A stretch of DNA of 64,000 nucleotides from a bacterium. GTDB lineage: Bacteria > Zhuqueibacterota > Zhuqueibacteria > Residuimicrobiales > Krinioviventaceae. Location of the stretch: contig CAXXMD010000003.1 of NCBI GenBank assembly GCA_963675755.2, forward strand, positions 2,624,001 through 2,688,000. The letters run 5' to 3'. Of the stretch, positions 6,632 to 24,273 are shown piece after piece; the first letter of the stretch is position 1, and the number at the start of each line of letters is the position of its first letter. Made by a program: the position numbers and the translations under genes. A model generated the notes under the pieces. That model saw only the letters and a list, made by a program, of their open reading frames with translations, was not told where the DNA came from and made no database searches.

Positions 6632-8041
6632 TTAGCTATTTTTTAATGCGAGTTGTTTTAACAGTCCTCGATTGATTTTGAGGCCATTGCCGGTCTGTTC
6701 AGGCCAGGGGTAAAATCGTACCGGGTGTTTGAATTTTTCCAGGTCCTGCTCCAGGTGTAGACGAATGATTGTCTCTTTAACCGGATTATCGCTGTATTGC
6801 AGAAACGCAACCGGGCGTTCTCCGAATTCATCATCCGGGATGGGCACAACAATGCACTGCGTTATCCCCTTGATCTGCTCGATGCATCTTTCAATCTCTT
6901 CCGGTTGGATGTTTTCTCCGCCGGAAATAAACATATTGTCCAACCGTCCCGTTACATTCAGGCAGCCCTTTTCATCCAGATACCCACGGTCCCCGGTGTG
7001 AAACCAGCCATCCTGATCTACTGCGCCGAGTATTCCGTGTTGATCAAAATATCCCTTGAACAGCGTTTTTCCTTTAACGCGTATTTCTCCCTGATCTGAA
7101 AATGACAGTCCCCGGTGGGGCAGCAGTCTGCCGCTGGTGGACAATTCTTTTGCGTCAGCACAGGATTGGGTTGTGGTGATTTGAGACGCCATTTCTGTTG
7201 ATCCGTAACTGGTGTGGATTGGAAGGTTGTATGCTATTGCCTGATCAATCAGCGATGCGGGAATTGCGCTTCCGCCTAACAGGATCGCTTTTAAAGATTG
7301 CAAGGCCGAGACAGCATCGGGATTGGTCAACATGCGCGCCAACTGGGTGCTGACCAGTGAAATGTGTGTAATGCTTTTGTTTTTGATCAGGGATTCCAAA
7401 GGCTCATCACTGTTTGGTAATACTACAGCCGCTCCGGCAAGAAAGCACCGGAAAAGAGGCGCGATTCCACCCACATGATACATGGGCAGGGAGAGCAGCC
7501 AGCGGTCTCCCTGCTGGACCGGGATGTTTGCATTGGAGCCTAATGCGTTATACAAATGGTTCGACAGTGTGTGCATTACCGCTTTGGGATTACCCGTACT
7601 GCCGGATGTAAATATCAATGTGGCGGGGAAATCTGTTTGCAATTTTATGGGATTAGTTGGATCTGCCGCGTTATTCAATGATGTGATGTTGAATGTATGG
7701 ATGCCTGGAAAATGTGCATCATTATTATCGGTAATCAGGGATTTGCATCCAACCTGCTGCATGCGTTGTTGTACTGTAGGCAATGGCAGCCGGGTGCTGA
7801 GGGGCATCATGATTATGCCGGCCATCCATCCACCCAGAAGCGTGGTGATGTATTGAACAGAGGGTTCCGCAAGAATGGCTGCAATAGCGCCTCGATTCAT
7901 GCTTTTTTTGAACATGAATGCCGTGTTGGTGCTTTGTGCAAACAATTGTGTATAGGTCAAAGCATCTTTATTGAAAATGACCGCAAGGCGTTCTGCATGC
8001 CTGGTGGTTTCCGGAAAGGCTATATAGTCCGGGATGTTCAC
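6632..8041 (-). CDS. menE: o-succinylbenzoate-CoA ligase
   Basis: FTSGSTGNPKAV, HVGG, YGSTEMASQ and GRLDNMFISGGENIQPEEIE motifs; adjacent to menC. Confidence 0.9.
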   Translation of the reverse strand: MNIPDYIAFPETTRHAERLAVIFNKDALTYTQLFAQSTNTAFMFKKSMNRGAIAAILAEPSVQYITTLLGGWMAGIIMMPLSTRLPLPTVQQRMQQVGCKSLITDNNDAHFPGIHTFNITSLNNAADPTNPIKLQTDFPATLIFTSGSTGNPKAVMHTLSNHLYNALGSNANIPVQQGDRWLLSLPMYHVGGIAPLFRCFLAGAAVVLPNSDEPLESLIKNKSITHISLVSTQLARMLTNPDAVSALQSLKAILLGGSAIPASLIDQAIAYNLPIHTSYGSTEMASQITTTQSCADAKELSTSGRLLPHRGLSFSDQGEIRVKGKTLFKGYFDQHGILGAVDQDGWFHTGDRGYLDEKGCLNVTGRLDNMFISGGENIQPEEIERCIEQIKGITQCIVVPIPDDEFGERPVAFLQYSDNPVKETIIRLHLEQDLEKFKHPVRFYPWPEQTGNGLKINRGLLKQLALKNS

Positions 8042-9114
8042 AGGGTGATCCTTTGCAGGATGCTGTTATTCAATTCAGGCGCCTTACCGGATAAACTGTA
8101 TTGACCATTCTCCGTTTTAAATGGAGGGGTGATAACATCGTCGTCCAGCCAGCGCCAGGTATCCAGGCCTGCCGCGGTATCGGGTTCCGATAGCGCCGCT
8201 GAAAGTCTGGCATAAAATTGCAATGCCAATCCGTTGTCAAACACGCTGGTGATGACGGTTTTGATCTTTTGTTGTTTTGCTTTGTCAGCCAGTAAGAGTG
8301 TGTTGGAAAGCGGACCCAAAACAGCCGGTTTTAAAATAATGGCACCCACCCAATCCGGTAGAGGGATTTGTGGCTGATTGAACAGAGTTAAGGATTCATC
8401 CAGAGCAATAGGGACAGTTACCTGATCTGCAAATTCATGAAGTTGAAGGGGGTTAGTTAGCGGTTCTTCAATGTATTCAATGTTTTCCGGGTTTATGTTC
8501 TGTATAAAAGTATTCGCATCATTAAATGACCATGCACGGTTTGCATCCAGCCGCAGGACAATATCATTTTTAAATGCTTGCTGGATTTTATGAATCCGAT
8601 CAATCTCCATGTCTACCGGATTTCCACCCACTTTGATCTTGATGGTAGTATAACCCTGTTGTAACCAGGATTTGATCTGTTCTGCATCATTATCCATGTT
8701 GCGGGTGAGCAGCGCATTTATTTTTATTGAATCCGGAGCGCTGTCATTGATTATGTACTGTATGGGTTTACCCTTCACTGCGGATACTAATCCGAGTTTT
8801 GCCATATCCAGGCCAAAAGCGACAGATGGAGGCAGGGAAAGAGGATTCTGATAGTTTGATATGTTTTTCGGGATGGGTGTGTTTTTAATTATAGAGATAT
8901 TATCTTTCAGTATAGCCAGACAGTCGTTAAGGCTTTCTGTATGCAATCCCGGCAGCGGGGAACAGTCTCCATAGCCGGCATTTCCATGCTCATCAGACAA
9001 TTCAATAATGAATCCCGAGCGGTTGAGGATTTTTTGATCGGCTACGACCAGCGGATTTGTTAAAGGCAGGTCGTACCGGTACAGATTGATATTTTTTATG
9101 TTTACAGGTTCCAT
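8038..9114 (-). CDS. menC: o-succinylbenzoate synthase
   Basis: Enolase superfamily: KIKVG, LRLDANRAW, YIEEP, IALDES, ILKP; SPLPGLH N-domain. Confidence 0.88.
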   Translation of the reverse strand: MEPVNIKNINLYRYDLPLTNPLVVADQKILNRSGFIIELSDEHGNAGYGDCSPLPGLHTESLNDCLAILKDNISIIKNTPIPKNISNYQNPLSLPPSVAFGLDMAKLGLVSAVKGKPIQYIINDSAPDSIKINALLTRNMDNDAEQIKSWLQQGYTTIKIKVGGNPVDMEIDRIHKIQQAFKNDIVLRLDANRAWSFNDANTFIQNINPENIEYIEEPLTNPLQLHEFADQVTVPIALDESLTLFNQPQIPLPDWVGAIILKPAVLGPLSNTLLLADKAKQQKIKTVITSVFDNGLALQFYARLSAALSEPDTAAGLDTWRWLDDDVITPPFKTENGQYSLSGKAPELNNSILQRITL

Positions 9115-9992
9115 CCTATGGCAAATAACAGGCTGTAAATGAAAAGGATCTGGCCGGTTTGGGCCAGCACTTTGTTAAATATACGTCCCGGTTCTGTATT
9201 GAGTACTGTTTTAAATGCCGGTATAGCCAGCAGTAAAATTAAAAATGTGATGAGCACCCAGTCTTTTCCGGGATTCAATAGAGCAAAAATTGCAGTGATA
9301 ATCATGCCACCGATGATACAAACCAGATATTCAGCTCGTGCAAACGTTTCTCCAAATCGTACAACCAGGGTGCGTTTACCGGACTGCCTGTCCTGATGGA
9401 TGTCACGCAAGTTGTTAATTGTTAGAATAGCGGTGGAAAATAAACCGGGAACGAGTCCCAGTAATATCACTGTGGAATTAATATCAAGTGCCTGAACATA
9501 ATAGGTACCGCCAACTGCAACGGGTCCGAAAAAAATGAGAACAAACAGATCACCCAATCCATTATAACCCAGCGGATAAGGACCACCGGTATAGGCAATG
9601 CCGGACAAAATTGAGAGCGCACCAATTACAATTATCGGCCAGCCACCACGCCAGATAAGATAAATACCAAAAATCGAGGCAAGGCCAAATGTGATAAGGA
9701 ATGCCCATTTCATAGCCTTGGGTGAAACAAGTCCCGCGGCGGTGGCGCGTGTAGGCCCCAGACGATCATCATCGTCTGCTCCTTTTATGTGATCATAATA
9801 GTCATTGGCATAGTTGGTACCAATTTGGATTAACAACGCTCCAATACCGGCTAAAAGGGCTGCAAGGAGGTGAAACGCATGATCAGCAACCGCCAAACCG
9901 GTTCCCATAATGACAGGTGCCAGGGCAGCGGGCAGGGTTTTGGGTCTGCCTGCATCTATCCAGACGGACAGGGACAAGGGTTTGAGTTTCAT
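9102..9992 (-). CDS. menA: 1,4-dihydroxy-2-naphthoate polyprenyltransferase
   Basis: RPKTLPAA, NYANDYYD, NNLRDIHQD...GKRTL UbiA-family motifs. Confidence 0.93.
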   Translation of the reverse strand: MKLKPLSLSVWIDAGRPKTLPAALAPVIMGTGLAVADHAFHLLAALLAGIGALLIQIGTNYANDYYDHIKGADDDDRLGPTRATAAGLVSPKAMKWAFLITFGLASIFGIYLIWRGGWPIIVIGALSILSGIAYTGGPYPLGYNGLGDLFVLIFFGPVAVGGTYYVQALDINSTVILLGLVPGLFSTAILTINNLRDIHQDRQSGKRTLVVRFGETFARAEYLVCIIGGMIITAIFALLNPGKDWVLITFLILLLAIPAFKTVLNTEPGRIFNKVLAQTGQILFIYSLLFAIGWNL

Positions 9993-10645
9993 ATCAGTTC
10001 CATGGGTTCGGTAAAATGGTGTGGTTCAATGTACCAGATATTTTTGATATCTTCAATCACTATATCTCTGCTGTACGCGAGAATGAACAGGTCACGTTTC
10101 TTTTTGAATCCCTGTATTTCAAGAGGTATTTCGCCTCTTGCTTTGATTTTTAATTTTACTGTTTTCAGGTCAATTTTGCATTTCAAGGTTTTTATGGCGT
10201 CCGAATGAGAGCGATCCAGACCATCTGCCAGCCTCAACAGTGCAGCTAGTTTGAGTACTCTGAGACGGTCCCATGCTATTAACCTGGCATAGTTTATATG
10301 TTTTTTACGAGGAAGCTTTCTACTGTGATATCGTGCAATGTTGCCAATAACCAGTTTTTGTCTGTCATTCCAGCCTTCAAGTGAGCTTTTTTCAATAATA
10401 GATAAAGAGTTTTTATGGTGCTGTTTTTTACCCTGAACGTAACCAATGTCATGCAGTATTGCTGCTGCTTCCAGCATATCACGTTCGGTGTTTCCATATC
10501 CGTGCAGCGGTTTTAATTGATCAAATAACTGGAGCGCCAGATTCTTGACTTGCAGAATATGTGCCGGTTCCTGTTCCAGTTCATACATTATCCGGATTGC
10601 AGAATCGTAGCGTAACCGTGATTTTTTTGATCTTTTTTTATCCAT
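9989..10645 (-). CDS. Stand-alone HD-domain protein equivalent to the Ppx/GppA C-terminal region
   Basis: AAAILHDIG, HHKNS, IARYH, LRLADGLDRSH. Confidence 0.8.
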   Translation of the reverse strand: MDKKRSKKSRLRYDSAIRIMYELEQEPAHILQVKNLALQLFDQLKPLHGYGNTERDMLEAAAILHDIGYVQGKKQHHKNSLSIIEKSSLEGWNDRQKLVIGNIARYHSRKLPRKKHINYARLIAWDRLRVLKLAALLRLADGLDRSHSDAIKTLKCKIDLKTVKLKIKARGEIPLEIQGFKKKRDLFILAYSRDIVIEDIKNIWYIEPHHFTEPMELI

Positions 10646-11543
10646 TCTCTAACAAAACTCCGAACATCAGGTCACGCAGACTGACATGTGCCAATGATAA
10701 TTGAAAATGCTCTAGTATTGTATCAACCAGAGTTGCACCGGTGAAAATAACATCACTCCGGTCAGGGTGCAAACCAGTTATCTGTTTCCGTTCCTGAATT
10801 GTCTTAACAAATAAATCCGCTAAAATATTTTGCAAATTTACCTTTTCAATAACGGATTTGTGCGATTGTTCTCCATTTCGGATATCGATTTTCTTGTCCA
10901 TCATTGCCAGAGTCGTTGCCGTACCTCCAACAAAAATAACAGCCTCTGCCTGAAAAGGCTCAAGTTGGTTTTTTAGGGTGGCTAAAGTAAAACTGCGCAA
11001 TTGCTCCGCTTCCCCTTGTGTTGGAGGATCATTGTGGATAAAACGAGTTGTAAGACGCCTGCTGCCAATATCGAGACTTTTATAATTCAGAATCTGGGTA
11101 TCTCGGGCAAAAATAAACTCTGTACTTCCACCACCAATATCGCAAACCACATAATTGCCATGCATTTCAAGATCGCTCATTGCACCATTAAAGCTCATTA
11201 ATGCTTCAGTATCCCCGGATAATAACCGGGGTTTAATACCGGTTTTACTCATTATGAGGTCAAAAAACGTGTCCCGGTTTTGGGCGTCACGTGTTGCGCT
11301 GGTTGCAAAAGCTATAACTGTCTCGGCTTTGTACTGATCTATGATAGTTTTATAATCTGCTATTGCAGTAACAACCCGCATCATGGCTTCTTGCGAAAGG
11401 TTGCCCTGTGCGTCAAAGCCTTTACCCAGACGGGTAATGGTATCTATCATTTTCAGCGGGGTAAGGGAACCATCCGGTTTTTTTTCTGCAATTAGCAGTC
11501 TGGTAGAATTGGTTCCAATATCTATGGATGCTACTTTGGACAT
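10638..11543 (-). CDS. ppx: Exopolyphosphatase / guanosine pentaphosphatase, short form
   Basis: IDIGTNS, TRLG, ATSATRDA, DIGGGSTE, GGTATT ASKHA motifs. Confidence 0.9.
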   Translation of the reverse strand: MSKVASIDIGTNSTRLLIAEKKPDGSLTPLKMIDTITRLGKGFDAQGNLSQEAMMRVVTAIADYKTIIDQYKAETVIAFATSATRDAQNRDTFFDLIMSKTGIKPRLLSGDTEALMSFNGAMSDLEMHGNYVVCDIGGGSTEFIFARDTQILNYKSLDIGSRRLTTRFIHNDPPTQGEAEQLRSFTLATLKNQLEPFQAEAVIFVGGTATTLAMMDKKIDIRNGEQSHKSVIEKVNLQNILADLFVKTIQERKQITGLHPDRSDVIFTGATLVDTILEHFQLSLAHVSLRDLMFGVLLENG

Positions 11544-11585
11544 ATAGGGGTATTCGTGTTTAAGGGTGTTGGATTCAGTTATATA

Positions 11586-11903
11586 TTATTCATTACCCAG
11601 TTTTATCAGTATCATTTCAATGGTATCATTGATTTTTTTAATATCTTTGATCCGGCCTTTTTGGGGCTTTAATTTTAATAATTTCAGGCTTTCCAGCATT
11701 TCAGCAAGTTCATCTCTGTCTTGTGCACCTTCAGGCAGGTCCTGCAATTCAGATGCTGTCAGATTGTTAATGCTCCACACCATTTTGGCTTCAAGGTTGG
11801 CCTGGTATCGTTGTACAATATCGCGAAACTGGATACGTAATGCAGTCACTTCAGCGATGATTTCCTGGCGCAGCTTTTCCGGATTTTTCTTTTTGTCTAT
11901 CAT
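11586..11903 (-). CDS. Small helical protein with basic KLKPQKGRIKDIKK patch
   Basis: 105 aa; start overlaps the kinase stop (ATGA). Confidence 0.7.
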   Translation of the reverse strand: MIDKKKNPEKLRQEIIAEVTALRIQFRDIVQRYQANLEAKMVWSINNLTASELQDLPEGAQDRDELAEMLESLKLLKLKPQKGRIKDIKKINDTIEMILIKLGNE

Positions 11904-12589
11904 TTGGCTTTCTGTAACAAGAGTTCAATTTTCTTTTGCAAATCCGCAGCTATTGTCCGTTGCGTGCGATTGCCGTTAATCATTTCAAAGTCATATTGAT
12001 CGTGCAGGTTGCTGAATTCTGTTTTGATTTTGCGTTGATATTTGATAAAGCTTTCAAATACATCGCGAGACAAACGGATATCCATGCCCGATTCCCAATA
12101 ATCCAGTTGGTTTTTCTTTTGGAAGTTTCGTTCAATTAGAAATCTGGGAGAAACATCGAGATAAAATACCGCATCGGGAACCAATGCGAGATTTTCATAA
12201 ATGTTTTTCAACCAATTGGGATTGGCTCCGCGAACAATATCACGTACCATTAATGTATATATATATCTGTCTGCAAGAACTATAAAACCAGCACGCAATG
12301 CCGGAATAATGGTGTTTTCCATCTGGTCTGCAAAATCGGTAGCATAAAACAGACTCAGGGTAACAGGGCTGAGAATGTTTCCCTGCATTGCCTGTTCCAG
12401 TTCCGCGCTCACCAGATTTGAACGTTTTAAGCCGACATTCACGGTTGCATGACCGCTACCTTCAAGCCAGTTGGTAAGGAGTCGTATTTGAGTTGAACGA
12501 CCTGAACCATCTGCACCTTCAATGACGATCAGTTTTCCCGCCAGTTTATTTACATCACAGCCGGGGATTCCCTTGCCGTAAAATTTCAT
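11900..12589 (-). CDS. Thymidylate-kinase-like protein B (P-loop GADGSGRST, Lys replaced by Arg)
   Basis: LIVIEGADGSGRSTQ, LADRY; likely start MKFYG at 12589 rather than 12640. Confidence 0.85.
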   Translation of the reverse strand: MKFYGKGIPGCDVNKLAGKLIVIEGADGSGRSTQIRLLTNWLEGSGHATVNVGLKRSNLVSAELEQAMQGNILSPVTLSLFYATDFADQMENTIIPALRAGFIVLADRYIYTLMVRDIVRGANPNWLKNIYENLALVPDAVFYLDVSPRFLIERNFQKKNQLDYWESGMDIRLSRDVFESFIKYQRKIKTEFSNLHDQYDFEMINGNRTQRTIAADLQKKIELLLQKAK

Positions 12590-12599
12590 GATAGTATCC

Positions 12600-13280
12600 T
12601 TACTTTTTAAGTTTGAACGATGGTAAATCGAAACGTTCATTCACGAGTTCACGAACAGTTTGTTGCTGCTGATCAACAGGTGCTGTTGCATCTATAATTG
12701 TAAAATTAAATTCTTTTGCCATATTGTCATAAGCATCATTAATGCGTCCCTGAAAAATTCTAAAGCTTTCGTAAGGGTCGGTAGACAAGTTCAGATCCAT
12801 ACCAGCTTCATGATACTTTAATTCCGGGCGTCCTTCAAGGATTCGGTTGATGGCGGTGTTGGGATTGAGTTTGAAATATAGTGTAATATCCGGAACTGAA
12901 GCAAAACTGTAATTGTTTTTTACCCATTCCGGGTCACAACCCCTAACCGTATCACGTGCAAAAGCTGTAAAAAAGTATCTGTCTGCCAATACAATATAAC
13001 CGGCGCGCAACAAGGGCCAGATCTGACGTTCATAACGGTCTGCAAAATCTGTACAATGTATAAGAGAAAATGTTGTGGGTGTAAGTAACTGACGTTTTTT
13101 CCCTTTTTTAGTTGCAGCTTTAACCAGTAATGAAGAATTCCACTCTGTGAAAAATACTTTATACTGTTCTAGCTCCAACCAACGCTTTAACAGGTAAATC
13201 TGTGTGGATTTTCCTGATCCATCTAATCCTTCCACGGCGATCAAGCGGCCGGGTGCGTTGTGCTTTTGTATCTTGACCAT
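12600..13280 (-). CDS. Thymidylate-kinase-like protein A (P-loop GLDGSGKST)
   Basis: LIAVEGLDGSGKSTQ, FTEWNSS, LADRY, EAGMDL. Confidence 0.88.
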   Translation of the reverse strand: MVKIQKHNAPGRLIAVEGLDGSGKSTQIYLLKRWLELEQYKVFFTEWNSSLLVKAATKKGKKRQLLTPTTFSLIHCTDFADRYERQIWPLLRAGYIVLADRYFFTAFARDTVRGCDPEWVKNNYSFASVPDITLYFKLNPNTAINRILEGRPELKYHEAGMDLNLSTDPYESFRIFQGRINDAYDNMAKEFNFTIIDATAPVDQQQQTVRELVNERFDLPSFKLKK

Positions 13281-13356: not shown

Positions 13357-14202
13357 TTACTCGGGAAGTTTAAATTTGTCTTTAAATTCTTTAACAAAAT
13401 CCACTGTTTTGCGGATATCTTTAATCTGTTCTTCTCCTGCAATTTCGCGTTCAATGGTAAACGTACCCTTGTAATCCAATTCAAATAATGTCCTAAAGAA
13501 ATCCTGAAACAATACATCCCCGGTTCCTGCAAGTACTTCGGTTCCCCATTCTTTTCCCGGTTCTTTTGCCCACAAGGCATCTTTAATGTGAACACTTTTG
13601 ACATAATTGCCAAGCAGTCGTAGTGCTGAAATGGGTTCTCCCGCGCCATACAAGATCATGTTTGCGGGATCAAAGTTGACCGCGAGGTTTTCACGGTTTA
13701 CAGATTCAATAAAGTTTAACAGTATTTTGGCTTTTTCCTGGCCGGTTTCCAGGTGTACGCGCATATCACGTTCTCCGCAATAATCGCAGAGTTTTTGTGT
13801 AGCATCTACAAGCCGGGTAAATGTTTCGGATTTGATATTTTCAGGTATAAAACCTATATGCATCCCAATAGCAGGTATGTTCATGGATTTGGCAAAGTCT
13901 GCAATTTCAATGCATTCCTGAAAACGGGACTCAAAAGTATCTGCTGGGGCAAGACCTACGGTCTCTTCAACTTTAGGTATGCTTTCATAACTTTCACCTT
14001 CAAAGCCGCAAAACAAGATGGTGATCTCTATGGATGCGTCTTTGAATAGTTGTAAAAGTACTTTTTGTTTTTCCGCTGTTCGCTCACCCTGGGGTGGAGT
14101 CAATACCTGTGCTGTAGGAATATCCAAAGATTTGGCGGCGTTTAGACGAGTGACCAGGTGCTCATCGGGAATAATAAATATACCAAGAGGATTTTTGTCC
14201 AT
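13357..14202 (-). CDS. Sugar phosphate isomerase/epimerase (xylose isomerase-like TIM barrel)
   Basis: HIGF, LETGQE, NFDPAN, VHIKD, TIERE metal-binding motifs. Confidence 0.85.
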   Translation of the reverse strand: MDKNPLGIFIIPDEHLVTRLNAAKSLDIPTAQVLTPPQGERTAEKQKVLLQLFKDASIEITILFCGFEGESYESIPKVEETVGLAPADTFESRFQECIEIADFAKSMNIPAIGMHIGFIPENIKSETFTRLVDATQKLCDYCGERDMRVHLETGQEKAKILLNFIESVNRENLAVNFDPANMILYGAGEPISALRLLGNYVKSVHIKDALWAKEPGKEWGTEVLAGTGDVLFQDFFRTLFELDYKGTFTIEREIAGEEQIKDIRKTVDFVKEFKDKFKLPE

Positions 14203-14325: not shown

Positions 14326-15345
14326 ATGAGTAAAAAATTTGACTGGAAAATAGTAGCGGGAATTCTTGTCAGCCTGTTTTTTATGTATTTTGCTTTTCGC
14401 AAGGTAGATATATCTCAAATGGGATCGGCATTCGCAAAGGCCAATTATTGGTATTTGCTGCCGGTTGTGGTTATTCTGTTGTTCAGCCATTTACTGCGGG
14501 CCTGGCGATGGAAATTGCTGCTGGCACCGCTTGGAAATATCCGTATGGTCAATGTTTTTTCTGCGCTCATGATTGGTTATATGGCAAATACCTTTGTACC
14601 CGCACACCTGGGTGAAATTTTTAGGGCCTATGTTGTTGGACGAAAGAACGAAATCTCTTCCAGCGCTGTATTTGCCACGGTAGTGGTTGAGCGTGTGCTG
14701 GATATGATAAGCCTTGTGGTTTTGTTGGCGTTGACTTTGGTGATTTATCCATTTCCGGATTGGGTTAAAAAAAGCGGATATATCTCTTTTGTTTTTATTG
14801 CCGTTTTTGTTGCCGTGTTGGTACTCATGAAGATATTCAAAGAACCGGGATTAAAGCTCCTGAAAAAGATGTTGAGTATTTTTCCTGAGAAATTCAGCAA
14901 TACCATCTATGATCTGGTTAAATCCTTTTTGGAAGGCATAATGCCTCTGAAGCACTGGCACCATTATTTTACAATCCTTGTCATAACGGTAATCATGTGG
15001 GCCTGTTATGCTTTTATTTTTAATCTTTCTTTTTATGCTTTTGATTTTGTAAATGCCTATGATGTACCCTGGAAAGCGTCTTTAGCGCTGCTGGTTGTAA
15101 CGACAATCAGTATTGCTGTGCCTTCATCTCCCGGATATGTGGGGACTTATCATTATCTCTGTCAGCAGGGTTTGAGCTGGTTTAATGTACCGGAAAGTGA
15201 AGCGCTTAGCTTTGCATTTGTAGCGCATGGAATGAATTTTATACCTGTATTGATACTCGGATTTTTCTTCTTGTCTTACGAAGGGTTGAGTTTCAGGAAC
15301 CTGCAGAAAAAGCCGGAAATACCTTTAACTGAAGAAGCAGATTAA
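14326..15345 (+). CDS. Lysylphosphatidylglycerol synthase TM / UPF0104 flippase-like protein
   Basis: RAWRW, GYMAN..PAHLGE, VVERVLD, VPSSPGYVG. Confidence 0.85.
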   Translation: MSKKFDWKIVAGILVSLFFMYFAFRKVDISQMGSAFAKANYWYLLPVVVILLFSHLLRAWRWKLLLAPLGNIRMVNVFSALMIGYMANTFVPAHLGEIFRAYVVGRKNEISSSAVFATVVVERVLDMISLVVLLALTLVIYPFPDWVKKSGYISFVFIAVFVAVLVLMKIFKEPGLKLLKKMLSIFPEKFSNTIYDLVKSFLEGIMPLKHWHHYFTILVITVIMWACYAFIFNLSFYAFDFVNAYDVPWKASLALLVVTTISIAVPSSPGYVGTYHYLCQQGLSWFNVPESEALSFAFVAHGMNFIPVLILGFFFLSYEGLSFRNLQKKPEIPLTEEAD

Positions 15346-17744
15346 ACCATCAAAGCGCTACTGTATTCATCATTAACCGTATCGACCTGAATGATCACCG
15401 GAAGCATATCTTTGACCGGTTCGATATGGGTAATGATGAATACCTGTCTGAACTGAGTTGAAAGCTGCCCCAAGGCTGTTAAAATCAAATCACGTCGTTC
15501 TGAATCCTGCGAGCCAAAAATCTCATCCAAAACAATAAAGTTTACCGGTGCACCACCACTACGTTCTGCAACAATCTGACTGATTGCTATTCGCAAACAG
15601 AGATTGGCAAGATCCTGTTCTCCGCCGGAAAACCGACCAATGGGGAAGGATTCGCTGCCGTCATAAATACGGATGTTGTAATCATTGTCCAGCTCCATGA
15701 GGTTGTAGCGCGAGTGCGTAGTCAGAGCAAGTAATGCGGATGCCTGATGTGCGATGAGAGGTCGCACCCGGGATGCCAGTTCAGACCGAAAAGTGCCAAA
15801 ATGTTCATCCAGAGCATTGAGATACAGGATCTCTTCTTTGATGGTTTGTATATTGTCCCGAATTTCTTTTTGTGCTTTAATTTCAGACTCTATTGCGTTC
15901 AACTGTGTTTTGAGTTCGGCAAGTTTTTCACGGGAACCGGCAAGCACTTCTTTTGCCTCATCGGCTTCACGTATCTGCAAATCTACCTGATTCTTTGAGG
16001 TATTGTAAGCAGTTGGGTCAAAATGAAGGTTCTTTTGACGATCAAGCAGAGATTTAATATCATTTTCGAGCTGTTTGATGTTTTTATCTGTAATGGATAT
16101 ATCTTTTTCAACCCCGGCTTTACGTTTGACCTGCTCCTCGGCACGTGCGGTTTTGTTTTTGATTTCGAGCAGGGATTCATATTGTGCTTTTACAGCCTCA
16201 TGTTCATCTTTTGAATAGGGAGTGTCTCCCAACTGGTCCAGTTCTTTTTGAACAAGCTCGAGTTGCTGGGTATAGCTTGAAATGGTTTCCTGGATGCGAT
16301 TTTGCACATCAACTGCTTCAAGTGCGCGCTGTTGTTTTTTTAACAACTGTTCGCGTTCACCGCGTATTTTACGAATGGATTGTTCGGTTTCTTTGAGACC
16401 GGCTTCAATTTCTGCTTCCTTGGTCCGAAGTGAAACCAGATCTGCTCGCAGCTTTTTTAAAAGCTGGTCCATTTCTTCAGAAACAGAATGTAGATGGTCT
16501 CCCAGTCGTTGTGAGCACAGGGGACACTTGCCTTCGGGGCCCACCTCTTTGAGCTGATCCAGCTTTTTACGCTCTTTTTGTCCCTGCTCGGTAATAGCAA
16601 GTGTTGAACCTTTGACCTCTGTTAATTGCTGCTGCAATTGTTTCTGTTTTACTTCTGCCTGTTTTTCCTGACCGGCCAACTGTTCAATCTCTTTTTCAAT
16701 TTCTTTCAGGTCCTGAGCTTTTTCCTGGTATTCGGACAACCGTTTCTCTTCGCGGGATATGTTTTCCTGCATGCGCATTTGTTCTTTTAATCGCGATTGG
16801 CGTGCGGTATCATTAAGCTGTTCACGATCCATTTGTTCTTTTTGTGCTTTGATCTCGGCAAAGGGGGCGAGCTGGATTTCCAATTCTTTTAATGCTTTTT
16901 CTGCCTGAAGGATATTTTCAAGATCGGTTTGAGATCGGGACAGCATCTCGTTGCTGCCTTCCAGGCTTGATCGGGTACGACCCAGTTGAGAGTCAAGGTC
17001 GATGAACTGCTCGCGCAATGCTGAAAGTTTTTCAAATTCGGTTTTGCCCTCGGCCAGGGCTTTGGTTTTCTGCTCAACAAGATCGGTTTGGGCTTTAACG
17101 GTTTCGGTTTGTGTTGTGTGAGATTTTTTTATATCCTGAAGCGTTTGTTTTAATTCATCAATGTTTTTTAAGGATGAAACCTGGCCGTTCATGAACTGCT
17201 GTTTGTTATTGCGATCAATACGGACTTGTTTTCGTGCGTAATCGATCTTGTCAATACCAATTAACCGGTTAATGCTTTTACGACGTTCTTCCGGTGAAAG
17301 GGAGGACAGCTTGTCAAGGTCCTTTTGTCTTGCGAAAACCGAAGCGGTAAAAGCGTTATAATCCAGTTGCAGCAGGTTCTGGATAAACTCGTCAACACCA
17401 CGGTCCTGCACGGCGACTGGATTGTCGTTTCCATCCCGATAAACTGCAGCTTCACTGGTAGCGTTTTTCCCCTTGAGCTTGCGGACGATCTTGTATTCAT
17501 GGTCCCCAAAGTTGAATGTCATTTCAACACTGCATTGGGACTTGTCCGGGGCGTTTTGTGAACGGATGTCCTGCTTTTCCGTACGTCCCAGACGGTTGCC
17601 GTATAAAACCCATCCGATTGCTTCTATCAAAGTGGATTTGCCCGAACCATTTCTGCCGATGATGCCGATAAGATTTTCCGGAAATTCCAGTTCAAGAGCG
17701 CTGAAGCGGCGATAGTTTTCCAATTTGAGTGTTTTAATGATCAT
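15342..17744 (-). CDS. sbcC: SbcC/Rad50-type SMC ATPase
   Basis: Walker A GRNGSGKS, coiled coil with CPLC zinc hook, FSGGEQ signature, LDEIFG Walker B; start at MIIKTLKLENY (17744). Confidence 0.88.
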   Translation of the reverse strand: MIIKTLKLENYRRFSALELEFPENLIGIIGRNGSGKSTLIEAIGWVLYGNRLGRTEKQDIRSQNAPDKSQCSVEMTFNFGDHEYKIVRKLKGKNATSEAAVYRDGNDNPVAVQDRGVDEFIQNLLQLDYNAFTASVFARQKDLDKLSSLSPEERRKSINRLIGIDKIDYARKQVRIDRNNKQQFMNGQVSSLKNIDELKQTLQDIKKSHTTQTETVKAQTDLVEQKTKALAEGKTEFEKLSALREQFIDLDSQLGRTRSSLEGSNEMLSRSQTDLENILQAEKALKELEIQLAPFAEIKAQKEQMDREQLNDTARQSRLKEQMRMQENISREEKRLSEYQEKAQDLKEIEKEIEQLAGQEKQAEVKQKQLQQQLTEVKGSTLAITEQGQKERKKLDQLKEVGPEGKCPLCSQRLGDHLHSVSEEMDQLLKKLRADLVSLRTKEAEIEAGLKETEQSIRKIRGEREQLLKKQQRALEAVDVQNRIQETISSYTQQLELVQKELDQLGDTPYSKDEHEAVKAQYESLLEIKNKTARAEEQVKRKAGVEKDISITDKNIKQLENDIKSLLDRQKNLHFDPTAYNTSKNQVDLQIREADEAKEVLAGSREKLAELKTQLNAIESEIKAQKEIRDNIQTIKEEILYLNALDEHFGTFRSELASRVRPLIAHQASALLALTTHSRYNLMELDNDYNIRIYDGSESFPIGRFSGGEQDLANLCLRIAISQIVAERSGGAPVNFIVLDEIFGSQDSERRDLILTALGQLSTQFRQVFIITHIEPVKDMLPVIIQVDTVNDEYSSALMV

Positions 17745-17894
17745 GTTGTGGACCCTTTTTGGTGATATATAATATAAAGAAAAATGTGAAAAATTAACAT
17801 GAATTTTTATGAAATACTTGTTTTTTTTGTTATTGTTTATTATATTCAATGCTACAACTGTGTTTACAAGCGAGTTTATATATAGGAGATTCTC

Positions 17895-18095
17895 ATGGCT
17901 AAGAAACAAATGACATTTGAACAAAAGGTGAGCAAAGGCCACGCTCCCAACGACAAATACGTACAGGTTGTATGTGCTTACAAATCAGAAGCAGATACCT
18001 GGAAATACAAACAAAAAAATGTACGTATTCCTGATGGACAAAATGAAGATCAGGTTGTTGACAGTGAAATTAAAAGAATTCAGGCTACTGCATAA
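17895..18095 (+). CDS. Small basic protein, DUF4295-like
   Basis: aggag RBS; MAKKQ...VQVVxAYKS..TWKYK pattern recalled from DUF4295, not verified. Confidence 0.55.
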   Translation: MAKKQMTFEQKVSKGHAPNDKYVQVVCAYKSEADTWKYKQKNVRIPDGQNEDQVVDSEIKRIQATA

Positions 18096-19508: not shown

Positions 19509-19991
19509 CTACAGGTTTGCTTTTTCCAGACGCAGCAGTTCCGCTTTCATGTCCACCCCAAATGCGAATCCTGTTAAACTGCCATTACTGCCAATAACCC
19601 TGTGACAGGGGATAATGAGGGGGATTGGATTCTTGCTGTTTGCCAGACCCACCGCGCGTGAAGCTTTATCATTTCCCAGGGCGCTGGCGATCTCTTTGTA
19701 TGTTTGTGCCTCGCCATAGGGGATGTTTAACAATGCTTGCCATACTTTTATCTGATAGTCTGTACCTTGAGGATTTAGCCGGATGTAGAACTGCATTGGC
19801 TTTTTACAGGAGAAATAGTTGTTGATTTGCTCAATGGTATTGCTGAAAAAGGCATCATTTTCCTCCCAGTCCAGAGATATACTGAATTCTCTTTTGCTCT
19901 TGTTTGAATCGAGATGTAAGTGCTGCAGTCCTTGCTCATCTCCCACCAGTGTGATTCTATATAATGGGGATTGAAATGTTGTATAATACAC
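19509..19991 (-). CDS. ogt: Methylated-DNA-protein-cysteine methyltransferase
   Basis: IPYGE..TY, RAVG.AN..NP, IPCHRV active site. Confidence 0.93.
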   Translation of the reverse strand: MYYTTFQSPLYRITLVGDEQGLQHLHLDSNKSKREFSISLDWEENDAFFSNTIEQINNYFSCKKPMQFYIRLNPQGTDYQIKVWQALLNIPYGEAQTYKEIASALGNDKASRAVGLANSKNPIPLIIPCHRVIGSNGSLTGFAFGVDMKAELLRLEKANL

Positions 19992-20006
19992 GGTTCCTCC
20001 TTTATA

Positions 20007-21461
20007 TCAAGAATTCCATAAACATAGCGCGGCATATGCCCGGTAAGGACGCCATTGTTCCGCAAGAGAGTTGATCTCTTTGATGGATGGTTTTGTACCG
20101 TCAGCAGCCAGTGCTTTTATAACTCCCAAATCGCCTGCCGGAAAGCTGTCAATAATACCCAGACCTCGCATGGCTACATAATTTACCGTCCAGTCGCCTA
20201 TTCCTTTCAATGCTGAGAATTGCTGATGAAAAGTGTCAAAATCCTGATTTGCAGACAATTCAAGCTTTTCATCCAGAATGCTTTGTGTGACGGTTTTGAT
20301 GGTTTGCTGCCGGATTTTGGTGATACCCAATCCGTCAATATCCAATTCAATCAGTTCGGATGGGTTGGGAAAAAAGTAATTTAATCCTTCCGGAAATTCG
20401 GGAGTAGTTTGGATTGCTGCTTTTTCTGCAACTCTGCCGGCTAATGTGGTTGCGGCACGGACAGTAATCTGCTGGCCCAGAATGGCTCTGACTGTAAACT
20501 CGAAAGGATCAAATGCTGCGGGTAATCGGGGGACGTGTCCGTTTTCCATGCCTTTGGACAGTATAGGATCATTAGAAAATTTATCGTTAATATGTGTAAA
20601 ATCCGTGTTCAGGTCAAACATTTTGCGTACACGGTTGCTGATTTCCATAAAGCACCTGATATCTGTGCTGTCTATGTGCAATTCCAATGCGGATTTTTCA
20701 GGATTATTGTTTACAATGAACCAACCGTTTGAGGTTTGCGTCCTGAATGTGCGGCTGTATTTAGAATCTGTAATGGTTTCTACACCTGCAATAGCACGTT
20801 CCCGCATAAAATTTAGAATTTGTTTATAATCAAAGGGCTTTTGATATTTTAACAGCAGGGTTGTCGTTTTGGACGTTTTGGGGGATTCCTGCAATTTTAT
20901 CCTCATTTGTGAAGGTGAAATACCAAAGGTATTTTTAAAGACATCGTTAAACTGACGCAGAGATCTGAATCCTGAGGCAAAGGCAATTTCTGTGATGGAA
21001 TGGTTTGAATACAATAATAGCTTTTTCGCAAACAGTATTTTATGAAAAGTTAATATTTTTACCGGTGGTGCACCCAGGTTATCCATGAAAATTTGGCGTA
21101 AATGGCGGTCCGATATGTTTAATTTCGCAGACAATTCTTTGAGAGAATGGTAATTCAGAAATCCCTCATAAATCATATTCAGCGCGGTATCCAGAATTGA
21201 CGCGCTGGTGGGATTTCCCCAATGGTATTCGATATTGATATCCGGTCTGCACCGTAAACACGGACGGAAATGCTGCTCAAGTGCTTCAAATAACGTGTTG
21301 AAATATACGACGTTCTCTTCTTTGGCTTCTGGAGCGGGACAGGAGGGTCTGCACACAATACCTGTGGATTTGACGCCAAAGAAAAATCGGCCATCAAAAT
21401 TTTTATCCTTGTCGAGTCGTGCCTGTTTAAAAACCGGGTTCATGGTTCCACCAAAAATCAA
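20007..21461 (-). CDS. alkA: AdaA-AlkA fusion (Zn domain, AraC HTH, 3-methyladenine glycosylase II)
   Basis: CRPSC...RPCLRCRP, IAFASGFRSLRQFN, AILGQQ, LKGIGDWT, WRPYRAYA. Confidence 0.9.
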   Translation of the reverse strand: MIFGGTMNPVFKQARLDKDKNFDGRFFFGVKSTGIVCRPSCPAPEAKEENVVYFNTLFEALEQHFRPCLRCRPDINIEYHWGNPTSASILDTALNMIYEGFLNYHSLKELSAKLNISDRHLRQIFMDNLGAPPVKILTFHKILFAKKLLLYSNHSITEIAFASGFRSLRQFNDVFKNTFGISPSQMRIKLQESPKTSKTTTLLLKYQKPFDYKQILNFMRERAIAGVETITDSKYSRTFRTQTSNGWFIVNNNPEKSALELHIDSTDIRCFMEISNRVRKMFDLNTDFTHINDKFSNDPILSKGMENGHVPRLPAAFDPFEFTVRAILGQQITVRAATTLAGRVAEKAAIQTTPEFPEGLNYFFPNPSELIELDIDGLGITKIRQQTIKTVTQSILDEKLELSANQDFDTFHQQFSALKGIGDWTVNYVAMRGLGIIDSFPAGDLGVIKALAADGTKPSIKEINSLAEQWRPYRAYAALCLWNS

Positions 21462-21522: not shown

Positions 21523-22215
21523 CTAGAAATTTACCCCAAAAACATGCACCAGTGTAAGATAAATGCCAACCAGTATAAAAATTGTTCCGGTTACAAGGCG
21601 TCCCCATTTTTCAATTATAGTGATGTTGTTATACGCTTTGGATATGTATTGTGTACCCAGGGATATGATTATAGCAAACGCCAGCACCGGCAAGCCTGTT
21701 GCAATACCATAGACCATAGGAAGCCAAACCCCTGAACCCATTTTGACGGCAATAGGGAGCAGACTGCCAAAAAACAAAGCGGCAGATACAGGACAAAAAG
21801 AGAGCGCGAAAAGAATACCCAGAAAAAACGGTGCCCATAATCCCCAACTCCCGATCTTTGCCTGCAATTTCATACTGGTACCGCGAGAAACAAGCCGGAT
21901 GTTTAATAGCTCGAGCAATACCATACCCACCAAAATCAGCAGGGGCCCCAGTGCCATGTTGATATATTTCTGCATAAAATGCGAGAGCCCCGGTGCGTTC
22001 AACAGGCTGGAAACCAGGATGATACCCAGCCACATATAAGCCAGGGTTCTTCCAGCTGTATATAACAATCCGGTTATCAGTACGCGTTTGGGTTTATCCG
22101 CCTGCTTGCCGATAAACGAGATGGCCGCAATATTGGTTGCCATTGGGCATGGGCTAATGGATGTGAGAATGCCCAGCCAGAAAGCTGTGCCCAGCGAAAT
22201 AAAGAGTTCTGTCAT
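21523..22215 (-). CDS. ArsG-family / CcdA-like thiol-redox membrane protein (copy 1)
   Basis: LTSISPCPMATNIAA and FALSFCPVSAALFFG. Confidence 0.8.
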   Translation of the reverse strand: MTELFISLGTAFWLGILTSISPCPMATNIAAISFIGKQADKPKRVLITGLLYTAGRTLAYMWLGIILVSSLLNAPGLSHFMQKYINMALGPLLILVGMVLLELLNIRLVSRGTSMKLQAKIGSWGLWAPFFLGILFALSFCPVSAALFFGSLLPIAVKMGSGVWLPMVYGIATGLPVLAFAIIISLGTQYISKAYNNITIIEKWGRLVTGTIFILVGIYLTLVHVFGVNF

Positions 22216-22670
22216 TAGATGCTTGCCAGTAAACCGCGGGTTTCAGTCTGGATATAGTCCACATATTTTTCTTTTTCGGGCACCAGCTCCCATACCCGTT
22301 CCAGGTTTTTCCAGCTTTTCTGCTCACCTTTGACATATTGTACGACAACGACTGATTTTGTGGTAAGCTGATAATCCTGGATATAGTGTTCATTGCCCGG
22401 AACATCGGTATTGACGGTGCGGAATTCGATTTTGCCCTTGTTCATTTCATTTGCAAAACCGGTTTCAATGGCTTCTTTGGCATAGGCTTCTATGGTTTTG
22501 CAGGTGTTACAGCGCATATTGCCATGGAAATAATAAGCAACCACTTTGGTTTGATTGTCTGTTGCAGTCACATTGGTTGCTGATTTACTGTTCTGGCTCC
22601 ATACCATATACACGATGCTGACAGCTACAAAGGCGAGCAATACAATGCTTAGCAGTTTTTTGGGTTTCAT
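22215..22670 (-). CDS. ArsF-family thioredoxin-fold protein (copy 1)
   Basis: N-terminal anchor; YYFHGNMRCNTC. Confidence 0.78.
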   Translation of the reverse strand: MKPKKLLSIVLLAFVAVSIVYMVWSQNSKSATNVTATDNQTKVVAYYFHGNMRCNTCKTIEAYAKEAIETGFANEMNKGKIEFRTVNTDVPGNEHYIQDYQLTTKSVVVVQYVKGEQKSWKNLERVWELVPEKEKYVDYIQTETRGLLASI

Positions 22671-22684
22671 CTTTTTACCTCTTG

Positions 22685-23008
22685 TCAGGAGTTTAAAATT
22701 TGCATTTGTTCTTCAATACGGGATTTGATCACAATGTCCACACAATCCATAAAACGCAGGACGCAGGGTACTTTTAAGCTATAGAATACATTTTGGCCGC
22801 GTTTTTCATCCTGTACGATGCCTGCGTTTTTCAATACGGAAAGGTGTTTGGAAATGGTTGAGAAATCCGCATCGATTGTTTTCACAAATTCGCAAACGCA
22901 GCATTCTTTAGCGGCCAGTTGTTCTACAATATACAGACGGGTTGGGTGTGCCAGGGCTTTTAAAACATTTGCTTTTGCGACATAACTGGATTTATTTTGA
23001 TCATCCAT
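22685..23008 (-). CDS. arsR: ArsR/SmtB metalloregulator
   Basis: KALAHPTRL, CCVC, ISKHLSVLK. Confidence 0.85.
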   Translation of the reverse strand: MDDQNKSSYVAKANVLKALAHPTRLYIVEQLAAKECCVCEFVKTIDADFSTISKHLSVLKNAGIVQDEKRGQNVFYSLKVPCVLRFMDCVDIVIKSRIEEQMQILNS

Positions 23009-23028
23009 ATATTACCTTATTACTTGGA

Positions 23029-23065
23029 TATTTGGCAAATTAACCAAATAATAGTTATTTGTCAA
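23029..23065 (-). promoter_or_regulatory. Sigma70 promoter with overlapping ArsR-type operator
   Basis: Minus-strand TTGACA (23060-65), 17 bp, TAATTT; inverted repeat TATTTGG-N8-CCAAATA (23029-23050). Confidence 0.7.
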
Positions 23066-23104
23066 TATATAATTTCATCATGTGAGAGTGCATGGAAACC
23101 GGAT

Positions 23105-23800
23105 TCAGAGCAGGGTTATATGAAAAATATGCACCAACGCATTGAACAGGCCAACCAAAATGAAAATAATTCCGGTAATTTGTCTGGCTTTGCGCTCAAA
23201 TAGAGTCAGTTTGTTGAAAAGAATACCCATTTTGTGGATACCTGTGGCAAGCACAATAGAGATGAGCAGTACCGGTAATCCTGTTGCAATGCCATATAAC
23301 GCGGGCAGAATAATGGGGGATTGGTGCTGAACCGCCAGGGGGACCAGACTACCGAAAAACAAGGCAGCGGGTACGGCACAAAACGACAATGCAAAGAGAA
23401 TCCCCAGCAGAAACGCACCCAACAGGGACAATGATGACAGTTTTTTACCGGTCTTTTCGCTGATTGTGAATCCCTGAAATGGCAGGGAGAGCAGATCAAG
23501 CAGCACCATGCCCACGAGTATCAGAACCGGACCAATGAGGATGTTGATGTTTTTTTGCAACAACTGGGATATTAGCGGTGCGGAAAGAAGGCTCTTGACC
23601 AGCATAAAACCCAGCACCGTATAGGCTGCTGTTCTGCCGGCAGTGTACAAGAGTCCGCCCCACAGGGTTTGTTTGGGCGCTGCAAGATTTTTGCTGATAA
23701 AGGAAATAGCTGCAATGGTGTTTGCCATGGGACAGGGACTGAGAGTAGTAAGAATGCCCAGCCAGAAAGCTGTAACTGCTGCGAGTAAATATGCGGTCAT
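23105..23800 (-). CDS. ArsG-family / CcdA-like membrane protein (copy 2)
   Basis: LTTLSPCPMANTIAA, FALSFCAVPAALFFG; paralog of 21523..22215. Confidence 0.78.
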   Translation of the reverse strand: MTAYLLAAVTAFWLGILTTLSPCPMANTIAAISFISKNLAAPKQTLWGGLLYTAGRTAAYTVLGFMLVKSLLSAPLISQLLQKNINILIGPVLILVGMVLLDLLSLPFQGFTISEKTGKKLSSLSLLGAFLLGILFALSFCAVPAALFFGSLVPLAVQHQSPIILPALYGIATGLPVLLISIVLATGIHKMGILFNKLTLFERKARQITGIIFILVGLFNALVHIFHITLL

Positions 23801-24273
23801 GGCAGCTCTCCATCCATGAATTGCCTGATTTGTTCAATCATAAAGGTTTTGAATGCTTGCGGGTCTTTGTACAGATACCATACATCATCAAGCACCTGCC
23901 AGGTTACGAGGTTACCGTCACTATATTTTGCCAGCACAACCGGACGGGTAGAGAGGTTGAAATCGGTTACGTAATGCTCGTTTGCGGATATGTCGAGATT
24001 GATTTTGAAAAACCGGATTGTGTTGCTGTTCAGTTCATCCCTGAATTGCGTTTGCAGTGTCTCGCGGGTGAGGGATTCGATGCTGTTGCAAGGATCGCAG
24101 CGCATGTAGCCGTGAAAGAAAATGACCGCTATACCGTTGTAACTTTCAGGCAAATCAGTCCGGGCGGACGAGTCCGGCCCCTCTGGCATAAAGATGACAA
24201 CCACCAGACAGGCAATAACAAACAGCAGTAATATGATTTTAATAACGAGTTTCATGGATACCGGTTTATTCAT
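23797..24273 (-). CDS. ArsF-family thioredoxin-fold protein (copy 2)
   Basis: FFHGYMRCDPC; ATGA overlap with the downstream arsG-like gene. Confidence 0.75.
   Translation of the reverse strand: MNKPVSMKLVIKIILLLFVIACLVVVIFMPEGPDSSARTDLPESYNGIAVIFFHGYMRCDPCNSIESLTRETLQTQFRDELNSNTIRFFKINLDISANEHYVTDFNLSTRPVVLAKYSDGNLVTWQVLDDVWYLYKDPQAFKTFMIEQIRQFMDGELP

Follow-up and report, generated by a model that had tools for sequence, protein, structure and literature searches.

A probable family-3 polyphosphate kinase operon with polyphosphate-turnover partners in a bacterium

A heteromeric family-3 polyphosphate kinase (PPK3) has been described in Sulfolobus acidocaldarius, in which a catalytic subunit (cPPK3, Saci_2019) and a regulatory subunit (rPPK3, Saci_2020) are encoded beside ppx (PMC12995831; Hofmann et al. 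2026, Journal of Biological Chemistry). According to that report, the enzyme is an α2β2 heterotetramer whose partner subunit stimulates catalysis, and the reaction is reversible, strongly favoring ATP formation from polyphosphate (polyP) and ADP over polyP synthesis. Neither Saci_2019 nor Saci_2020 made dTDP, and the EP motif, a feature of the dTMP site of thymidylate kinases (Tmk), is not conserved in PPK3. The inactivity of rPPK3 was ascribed to replacement of the arginine of the DRX motif and to loss of a basic cleft. PPK2 and PPK3 were treated as having separate origins; PPK3 genomes carry a canonical tmk elsewhere and most are without PPK1 and PPK2. The paper also reassigns STK_15430 of Sulfolobus tokodaii as a homologue of cPPK3 and predicts PPK3 operons in “a few bacteria”; its Data S1 includes Chloracidobacterium as PPK3-positive and has no KSB1 row among the 31,788 rows covered here, out of 47,545 genomes. 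Here we analyze a 64,000-nucleotide stretch of a Zhuqueibacterota genome (assembly GCA_963675755.2, contig CAXXMD010000003.1, positions 2,624,001 to 2,688,000; hereafter the window), in which five adjacent genes very probably form a PPK3 operon with polyP-turnover partners. A preliminary description of this DNA had pointed to a two-subunit, Tmk-like PPK3 next to ppx in Sulfolobus, which is indeed the enzyme just described.

Since PPK3, including bacterial operons, was published in 2026, the core of this assignment is already known. Three features go beyond the text of PMC12995831: the second kinase-like protein keeps the DRX arginine and carries an invariant Lys-to-Arg change in Walker A; a stand-alone HD domain, of the domain III type of Ppx/GppA and elsewhere fused to PPK3, is present; and an unnamed family of small helical proteins occurs in PPK3 operons. 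The words “hypothetical” and “HD domain” are absent from the main text of the paper, whose Figs 5, S14, S16 and S19 may show bacterial rPPK3 or such neighbors.

Open reading frame coordinates place the five genes on the minus strand, running from 13280 to 9989 in the order A, B, the 105-residue gene, ppx and the HD gene, at exactly the span first proposed for them:

12600..13280, minus strand: gene A, 226 residues, putative catalytic PPK3 subunit (cPPK3 orthologue), from the STK_15430 score, residue columns and tree
13214-13203 and 12983-12975, minus strand: Walker A GKST and DRY motifs of A, which has WNSS at the REP site of Tmk (residue columns)
Within gene A, minus strand: conserved basic residues K54, K61, R82, R109, R113, R146, R151 and K155 (residue columns)
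11900..12589, minus strand: gene B, 229 residues from its likely start, putative partner PPK3 subunit (rPPK3 position), from the STK_15430 score, homologues, residue columns and structure model
12502-12491 and 12271-12263, minus strand: Walker A GRST and DRY motifs of B, which has LKRS at the REP site (residue columns)
11900..12589, minus strand: region of B without equivalents of K61, H75, R82 and K155 of A (residue columns)
11586..11903, minus strand: 105-residue all-helical protein of an unnamed family (profile search, 64 clusters), ATGA-coupled to B
11669-11643, minus strand: conserved basic loop KPxKGRxKD of the 105-residue protein, K79-D87 (family alignment)
10638..11543, minus strand: Ppx/GppA-family phosphatase, short two-domain form, 301 residues (PF02541, E 3e-56; motifs DIGTNS, EA and DIGGGSTE)
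9989..10645, minus strand: stand-alone HD protein of the Ppx/GppA domain III type, 218 residues, isoelectric point 9.85 (PF21447, E 7e-23)

A gap of 42 nucleotides lies between the 105-residue gene and ppx, and ppx overlaps the HD gene by 8 nucleotides. The two kinase-like proteins are jointly encoded paralogues, as are the subunits of PPK3, with 40% identity over 210 residues (E 1e-55, far above chance). Their description as tandem GKST and GRST proteins holds (GSGKST in A, GSGRST in B), and both contain DFAD, LRAG.IVLADRY and E(A/S)GMD. Across the 64-kb window, a Tmk profile hits A and B alone, and a PPK2 profile has no match.

The closest relative of A with a solved structure is STK_15430 (2plr/5h70), which scored 221.7 bits among 24 PDB matches and is ~50% identical to A, compared to 45.9 bits for the best true Tmk. 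A scan of GTDB genomes for relatives of A yielded at least 593 pattern matches, of which at least 450 were confirmed; the best 80 confirmed matches were analyzed, so that the locus counts given here are biased to A-like loci. Residue columns were surveyed in 80 A, 76 B and 8 annotated Tmk sequences. Among the Tmk controls, the EP motif retains Glu in 7 and Pro in 6; A has WN instead (Trp in 80/80), and B has L[RK]. Arg39-Glu40-Pro41 of the E. coli enzyme align with Glu46-Trp47-Asn48 of A and with Gly53-Leu54-Lys55 of B. Every A (80) and Tmk (8) sequence has the Walker A lysine, and Lys24, Lys61, Arg82, Arg101, Arg109, Arg113 and Arg146 of A are each invariant (80/80). A appears to have the features by which cPPK3 is recognized, namely the Walker A lysine, the DRX arginine and a conserved basic cleft, the last judged by conservation and the STK_15430 alignment. 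The PPK2 profile PF03976 matched neither A nor B (E up to 0.1); of the two families named in the preliminary description, PPK2 is thus not the relevant one. Annotated phage records contain no match to A at E 1e-20. A lone divergent A-like gene (33.5%) lies beside a CYTH-domain gene on a plasmid of Clostridium estertheticum (L082:5224-6642).

A quick maximum-likelihood tree was computed from 92 rows, comprising both subunits of 28 of the 80 loci, selected representatives and the 8 Tmk, with support from the Shimodaira-Hasegawa-like approximate likelihood ratio test (SH-aLRT). The side containing A and B is split from canonical Tmk at 99%; in the comparison with true Tmk that the preliminary description had called for, both proteins fall outside. 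P0171, which is closely related to STK_15430 (295.5 bits to 2plr), is placed in the A group together with Nitrososphaerota subunits, and B groups with the second subunits of Nitrososphaerota pairs. On this evidence, A and B share with PPK3 a dTMP kinase fold in a clade apart from the canonical enzymes.

A duplicated housekeeping thymidylate kinase is what the PF02223 matches of A and B, the database labels of their homologues (“thymidylate kinase” or “dTMP kinase”) and an earlier report on STK_15430 (see below) would suggest. We consider this origin extremely improbable, as both proteins miss the TIGR00041 dTMP kinase cut-off of 83.25 (80.5 for A, 76.1 for B), share only 19–29% identity with the 8 Tmk, have lost the EP motif and stand across a split at 99 from Tmk, as no dTDP was made by the Sulfolobus subunits (PMC12995831), and as the genes lie among phosphate-related neighbors rather than mltG/holB. 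The view of the locus as a polyP module instead of a housekeeping tmk is supported by the kinship to STK_15430, the tree and the linkage to ppx. As to the direction of a synthesis/turnover module, the S. acidocaldarius enzyme strongly favors ATP formation.

B most likely starts at the ATG at 12589, and not at the longest-frame start at 12640, because this ATG follows an AAGGA element that overlaps the stop of A, and because the closest B homologues (224–232 residues) start at the equivalent position. The nearest named homologues are from candidate division KSB1 and Calditrichota (77–78%), and the host is probably a relative of KSB1. B also scored best against STK_15430 (140.5 bits, compared to at most 54.7 for true Tmk among 25 PDB matches), and chains of the same protein (ST1543) are fold matches 1–8 of its structure model, which has a mean predicted local distance difference test score (pLDDT) of 92.7. 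The Walker A residue of B is an arginine in all 76 loci and in 120/120 homologues from a word search. The DR of DRX is retained in the same 120 homologues and in 76/76 loci, among them those of archaea (13 of Nitrososphaerota type, one of Methanoliparum); a degenerate DRX was seen only in some representatives (P0274, P0233, P0200 and P0237). B additionally conserves G-x-G-R-[ST], Arg116 (76/76), Arg120 (75/76) and Arg154 (76/76), and has its own Arg56 (74/76) and Ser57 (76/76). At the basic positions of A, it differs: Lys61 is a lysine in 41/76, His75 is replaced by Tyr in 76/76, Arg82 by Gln in 65/76 and Lys155 by Asp in 57/76. Compared to the cPPK3 cleft, the equivalents of Lys61, Arg82, Arg151 and Lys155 are lost or variable, Arg116, Arg120 and Arg154 are kept, and Arg56 is gained.

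These patterns suggest that the published cause of partner inactivity does not hold for the sampled bacterial and Nitrososphaerota partners. Division of the pair into a catalytic and a regulatory subunit stands for A, which is of the catalytic type by orthology; for B, “regulatory” is a role that we infer, since the DRX arginine, whose loss accounts for the inactivity of rPPK3 in PMC12995831, is retained in B. A Lys-to-Arg change in Walker A is commonly assumed to permit binding and block turnover, an assumption described as often untested (PMC1919488). B is probably no catalyst, for another reason than in Sulfolobus. We lean slightly towards B binding a nucleotide or phosphate ligand without turnover, as an allosteric sensor, because the DRX arginine and the phosphate-site arginines are kept, Walker A has Arg, and part of the polyP cleft is lost. 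Alternatively, both subunits may be catalytic, with B acting on another acceptor or nucleotide or in another direction, and the inert rPPK3 of Sulfolobus would then be a degenerate special case. The retained G-x-G-R-[ST], DR, Arg116, Arg120 and Arg154, the gain of Arg56/Ser57, the restriction of degenerate DRX to some representatives and the good conservation of B (median identity of homologues to the window copy 52%, versus 61% for A) are compatible with a second catalyst. Nevertheless, the Walker A arginine without exception in B, where every A and Tmk has Lys, and the absence of Lys61, His75, Arg82 and Lys155 of A make it unlikely.

With B as the non-catalytic partner, the operon would work as follows. 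A would bind ADP/ATP at its P-loop and polyP in a basic cleft present in place of the dTMP pocket, and, by orthology to Saci_2019 and STK_15430, would transfer the terminal phosphate, mainly from polyP to ADP at low energy to give ATP. By analogy to the S. acidocaldarius enzyme (SaPPK3), B would form a hetero-oligomer with A and activate it, and the two together might make polyP at a high ATP/ADP ratio. Ppx would degrade polyP to phosphate.

The gene neighborhood of the related loci fits this scheme. B lies directly downstream of A in 75/80 loci, with one pair rearranged, two at a contig end and two missing B. Whether the ppx linkage is conserved had been posed as a critical point, and it is conserved without being universal: Ppx is encoded within 2.5 kb in 53/80 loci, and in 37/50 of those flanked on each side by 3 kb or more. 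Other neighbors in the 80 loci include SixA (33), ROK kinase (14), PPK2 (10), PhoU (7) and Pst genes, and 16 of 33 hand-picked unlabeled neighbors that were scanned are CHAD proteins. The polyP-operon setting of PPK3 (ppx, sixA, CHAD, pst) is present in the window through ppx and otherwise in the neighbors of its relatives. A ROK-family kinase is encoded downstream of B in L001, L003, L004, L006, L008, L011, L012, L014, L017, L021, L023, L024, L033 and L046, and could possibly be a polyP-dependent sugar kinase. PPK2 occurs close to the PPK3 pair in L026, L037, L038, L040, L041, L043, L044, L050 and L075 (10/80 in total).

The identification of ppx and an HD gene after the 105-residue gene was correct, and the HD protein can now be refined to domain III of Ppx/GppA (PF21447). 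We take the catalytic motifs of Ppx and the HD metal ligands to be as named here, partly in addition to what the Pfam matches give. Ppx scored 222 bits against the exopolyphosphatase-only model TIGR03706, below its cut-off of 307, and in the HD protein His29, His65, Asp66, His76, His77, His107, Asp141, Asp144 and His147 are all intact. Ppx and GppA form one family, so that these two results, together with A-type domains fused to NUDIX and DUF2252/APH-like domains, would also suit another phosphorylated substrate, such as (p)ppGpp or a nucleotide signal, that A and B phosphorylate and Ppx/GppA and the HD protein dephosphorylate. Such a substrate is very unlikely given the ~50% identity of A to STK_15430, an orthologue of an assayed enzyme, and the polyP/phosphate genes (CHAD, SixA, PPK2, PhoU, Pst) among the neighbors.

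Returning to polyP as the substrate, the HD protein clusters in a tree (support 82) with 4 free-standing HD proteins of other PPK3 loci and away from domains fused to Ppx (28) or to PPK3 (3). Of these loci, one (L077) encodes a stand-alone HD protein plus a full-length Ppx, and three (L012, L021 and L050) encode the HD protein without an adjacent Ppx. The HD tree and these loci argue, with weak support, for a separate accessory rather than a recent fragment; the same tree also disfavors, again weakly, the idea that a long ppx gene was split in two recently. The catalytic part of Ppx is ambiguous in this respect, with short Ppx proteins as 5 of its best 6 matches and a long Ppx as the second.

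The 105-residue gene shares an ATGA with the stop of B and is thereby coupled to it, as first described; its product is not the basic protein that had been stated, being near neutral overall (19 Lys+Arg, 18 Asp+Glu, isoelectric point 7.9), compared to a family median isoelectric point of 9.7. A search with the single sequence found one other homologue only. An iterative profile search located the family in 7 of the 80 loci, each time directly after B; a subsequent profile search collected 64 clusters without Pfam annotation. The 7 occurrences are labeled Sumerlaeota, Acidobacteriota, Verrucomicrobiota, Goldiibacteriota and Aminicenantes, share 22–29% identity with the window copy and are followed by varying genes (ROK, CHAD, PPK2, metallophosphatase). 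Lys79 and Gly83 are invariant, and KPxKGRxKD is kept in 61/63 homologues. The structure model (pLDDT 92.5) consists of helices at 8–48, 63–74 and 85–102, and the motif lies in the loop joining the second and third helices.

Searches for a known relative of this protein gave little. No Pfam family matches more than 3 of 68 members, and CHAD (PF05235) is not among the 25 families listed of the 31 matched by these members; a role as a CHAD substitute was rejected, as CHAD genes adjoin it in 4/7 loci. Foldseek with the model gave no match at E 0.001, the best score in a fold comparison (Z 6.3) is ordinary for helical bundles, and a PDB profile search returned nothing below E 0.056. Atlas look-ups led to unnamed clusters at 0.75–0.76 with generic helical models only. 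Complex prediction of A2B2 with the 105-residue protein scored 0.00, which carries no weight for or against binding. Fused or longer forms were absent from the collected proteins and the 80 loci, no database search having been aimed at them.

The fixed position and the basic loop suggest that this protein binds polyP or the kinase. We propose tentatively, with a little less than even confidence, that it is an optional polyP- or kinase-binding accessory acting through this loop, and that the HD protein is a separate polyP-binding or phosphohydrolase accessory. The 105-residue protein could also be a passenger without a role in polyP metabolism, a view that concerns this one gene and to which its rarity (7/80 loci) and the lack of a Pfam family covering more than 3/68 members lend some weight. 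That all 7 copies directly follow B across varied lineages at such low identity, with the next gene variable, and that the basic motif is retained in nearly all homologues speak against a passenger, which we therefore regard as the poorer explanation and rather unlikely.

Fusions were surveyed in 21 long matches scanned out of the 150 best representatives. The partners of the A-type domain are B, B with Ppx domain III, SPX, inorganic pyrophosphatase, NUDIX (3 proteins) and MFS/DUF2252. Three-part fusions join A, a degenerate B and Ppx domain III (HD) in P0137, P0147 and P0165, and P0127 is a plain A+B fusion. P0205, P0218 and P0253 are large proteins in which a cPPK3-like domain is combined with inorganic pyrophosphatase (PF18823) and, in one of them, with ART-PolyVal, suggesting that such fusions are carried by mobile elements. 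P0167, P0175, P0176, P0185, P0195, P0234 and P0248 combine MFS, cPPK3-like and DUF2252/APH-like domains in the same chain without B, and P0154 and P0160 are cPPK3-like and DUF2252/APH-like fusions without MFS. The 794-residue P0162 has an N-terminal SPX domain, a single cPPK3-like domain (GKST, WNSS, DRY) and then DUF2252. SPX is a eukaryotic phosphate-sensing domain, and this single sequence may therefore be a eukaryotic PPK3. The parts of the literature covered, on KSB1 with polyphosphate and on DUF2252, SPX and thymidylate kinase, contained nothing on such loci or this fusion.

Several observations weigh against a PPK3 operon with a regulatory second subunit. The only characterized PPK3 is archaeal and this locus is bacterial. 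STK_15430 was earlier reported as an unusual thymidylate kinase, in work in which only ADP formation was monitored (10.1101/2024.08.28.610084). B has DRY and so fails the published hallmark of rPPK3, a replaced DRX arginine; its putative rPPK3 position follows from gene order and tree, and support for separate A and B groups is modest (87 each). Two loci from one Thermoproteota-labeled genome (L070 and L076) have A with no B, although 1.7 and 6.9 kb of sequence follow downstream. Ppx is missing within 2.5 kb in 27/80 loci, including 13 of the 50 that have long flanks, and the 105-residue family is absent from 73/80. SixA and CHAD set the Sulfolobus operon apart from the window locus, where no SixA match and, among the neighbors scanned, no CHAD protein turned up. 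With these points taken into account, we still hold the PPK3 operon to be very probable.

The genes flanking the five are on the same strand:

6632..9992, minus strand: menA-, menC- and menE-like genes, with an ATGA overlap with the HD gene
13357..14202, minus strand: xylose-isomerase-like TIM-barrel gene upstream of A (Pfam match)

The coupled gene run extends beyond the HD gene into the men-like genes (labels that we presume in part, on top of Pfam matches), which probably share a transcript with it. The men-like cluster is not among the neighbor families common to at least 3 of the 80 loci, and thus does not belong to the conserved module. The top-scoring sigma-70-like match in the region scanned is at 14287-14259 (11/12), with a weaker one at 13353-13324; these are consensus matches only, of which 33 were found versus 18.5 expected. 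Elsewhere in the window, also on the minus strand, 21523-24273 holds two similar tandem gene pairs of a DsbD-type membrane protein (230 and 231 residues) and a partner of 151–158 residues without a Pfam match, 15342-17942 is an SMC/SbcC-like ATPase gene, and 19509-21461 contains an Ada/AlkA-type gene followed by another gene, presumably a methylated-DNA methyltransferase.

The only assays of PPK3 in the literature found are those on S. acidocaldarius, and the present locus offers a compact bacterial test case in which a few point changes would suffice to probe directly what the second subunit does. Labeling as “dTMP kinase” hides polyP metabolism in many uncultured lineages, with at least 450 confirmed matches in one GTDB scan, and the 105-residue protein is a candidate new component of polyP systems. 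A broader conjecture, which we consider doubtful, is that outside Sulfolobales most second subunits of PPK3 have a functional ligand site (Walker A Arg, DRX Arg), which serves either to sense a nucleotide or to catalyze a second reaction, that in some bacteria the complex also includes the KPxKGRxKD helical protein and the stand-alone HD protein, and that the family may reach eukaryotes as an SPX-fused single-domain kinase, as in the one protein P0162.

Among known systems, canonical Tmk (TIGR00041/PF02223) shares with A and B the fold, P-loop and DRX motif, and differs in its REP motif, in sequence (19–29% identity, with A and B below the family cut-off), in its branch of the tree and in gene context. 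PPK2 (PF03976) is likewise a polyP-using P-loop kinase, and the pairing of an active and an inactive domain in its class II two-domain enzymes is analogous to the PPK3 pair (PMC12995831); A and B have no PF03976 match, and the origin of PPK2 is separate according to the same paper. Long Ppx/GppA proteins (PF02541 + PF21447) carry in one chain, and in the same order, the two domains that are divided between two genes in the window. STK_15430/ST1543 of S. tokodaii (2PLR, 4NZY, 4RZX, 5H70) is the best solved relative of A and B by sequence, and of the B model by fold; it has TEWNSS, DFxDR and DRY in common with A, although it was deposited as a dTMP kinase. SaPPK3 differs from the window locus, in which B keeps the DRX arginine and has a Walker A arginine, and which has an extra 105-residue gene, a short Ppx with a stand-alone HD gene, and no SixA or CHAD found. 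Both systems have two tandem genes of the dTMP kinase fold beside ppx, with the catalytic type first and the EP motif lost.

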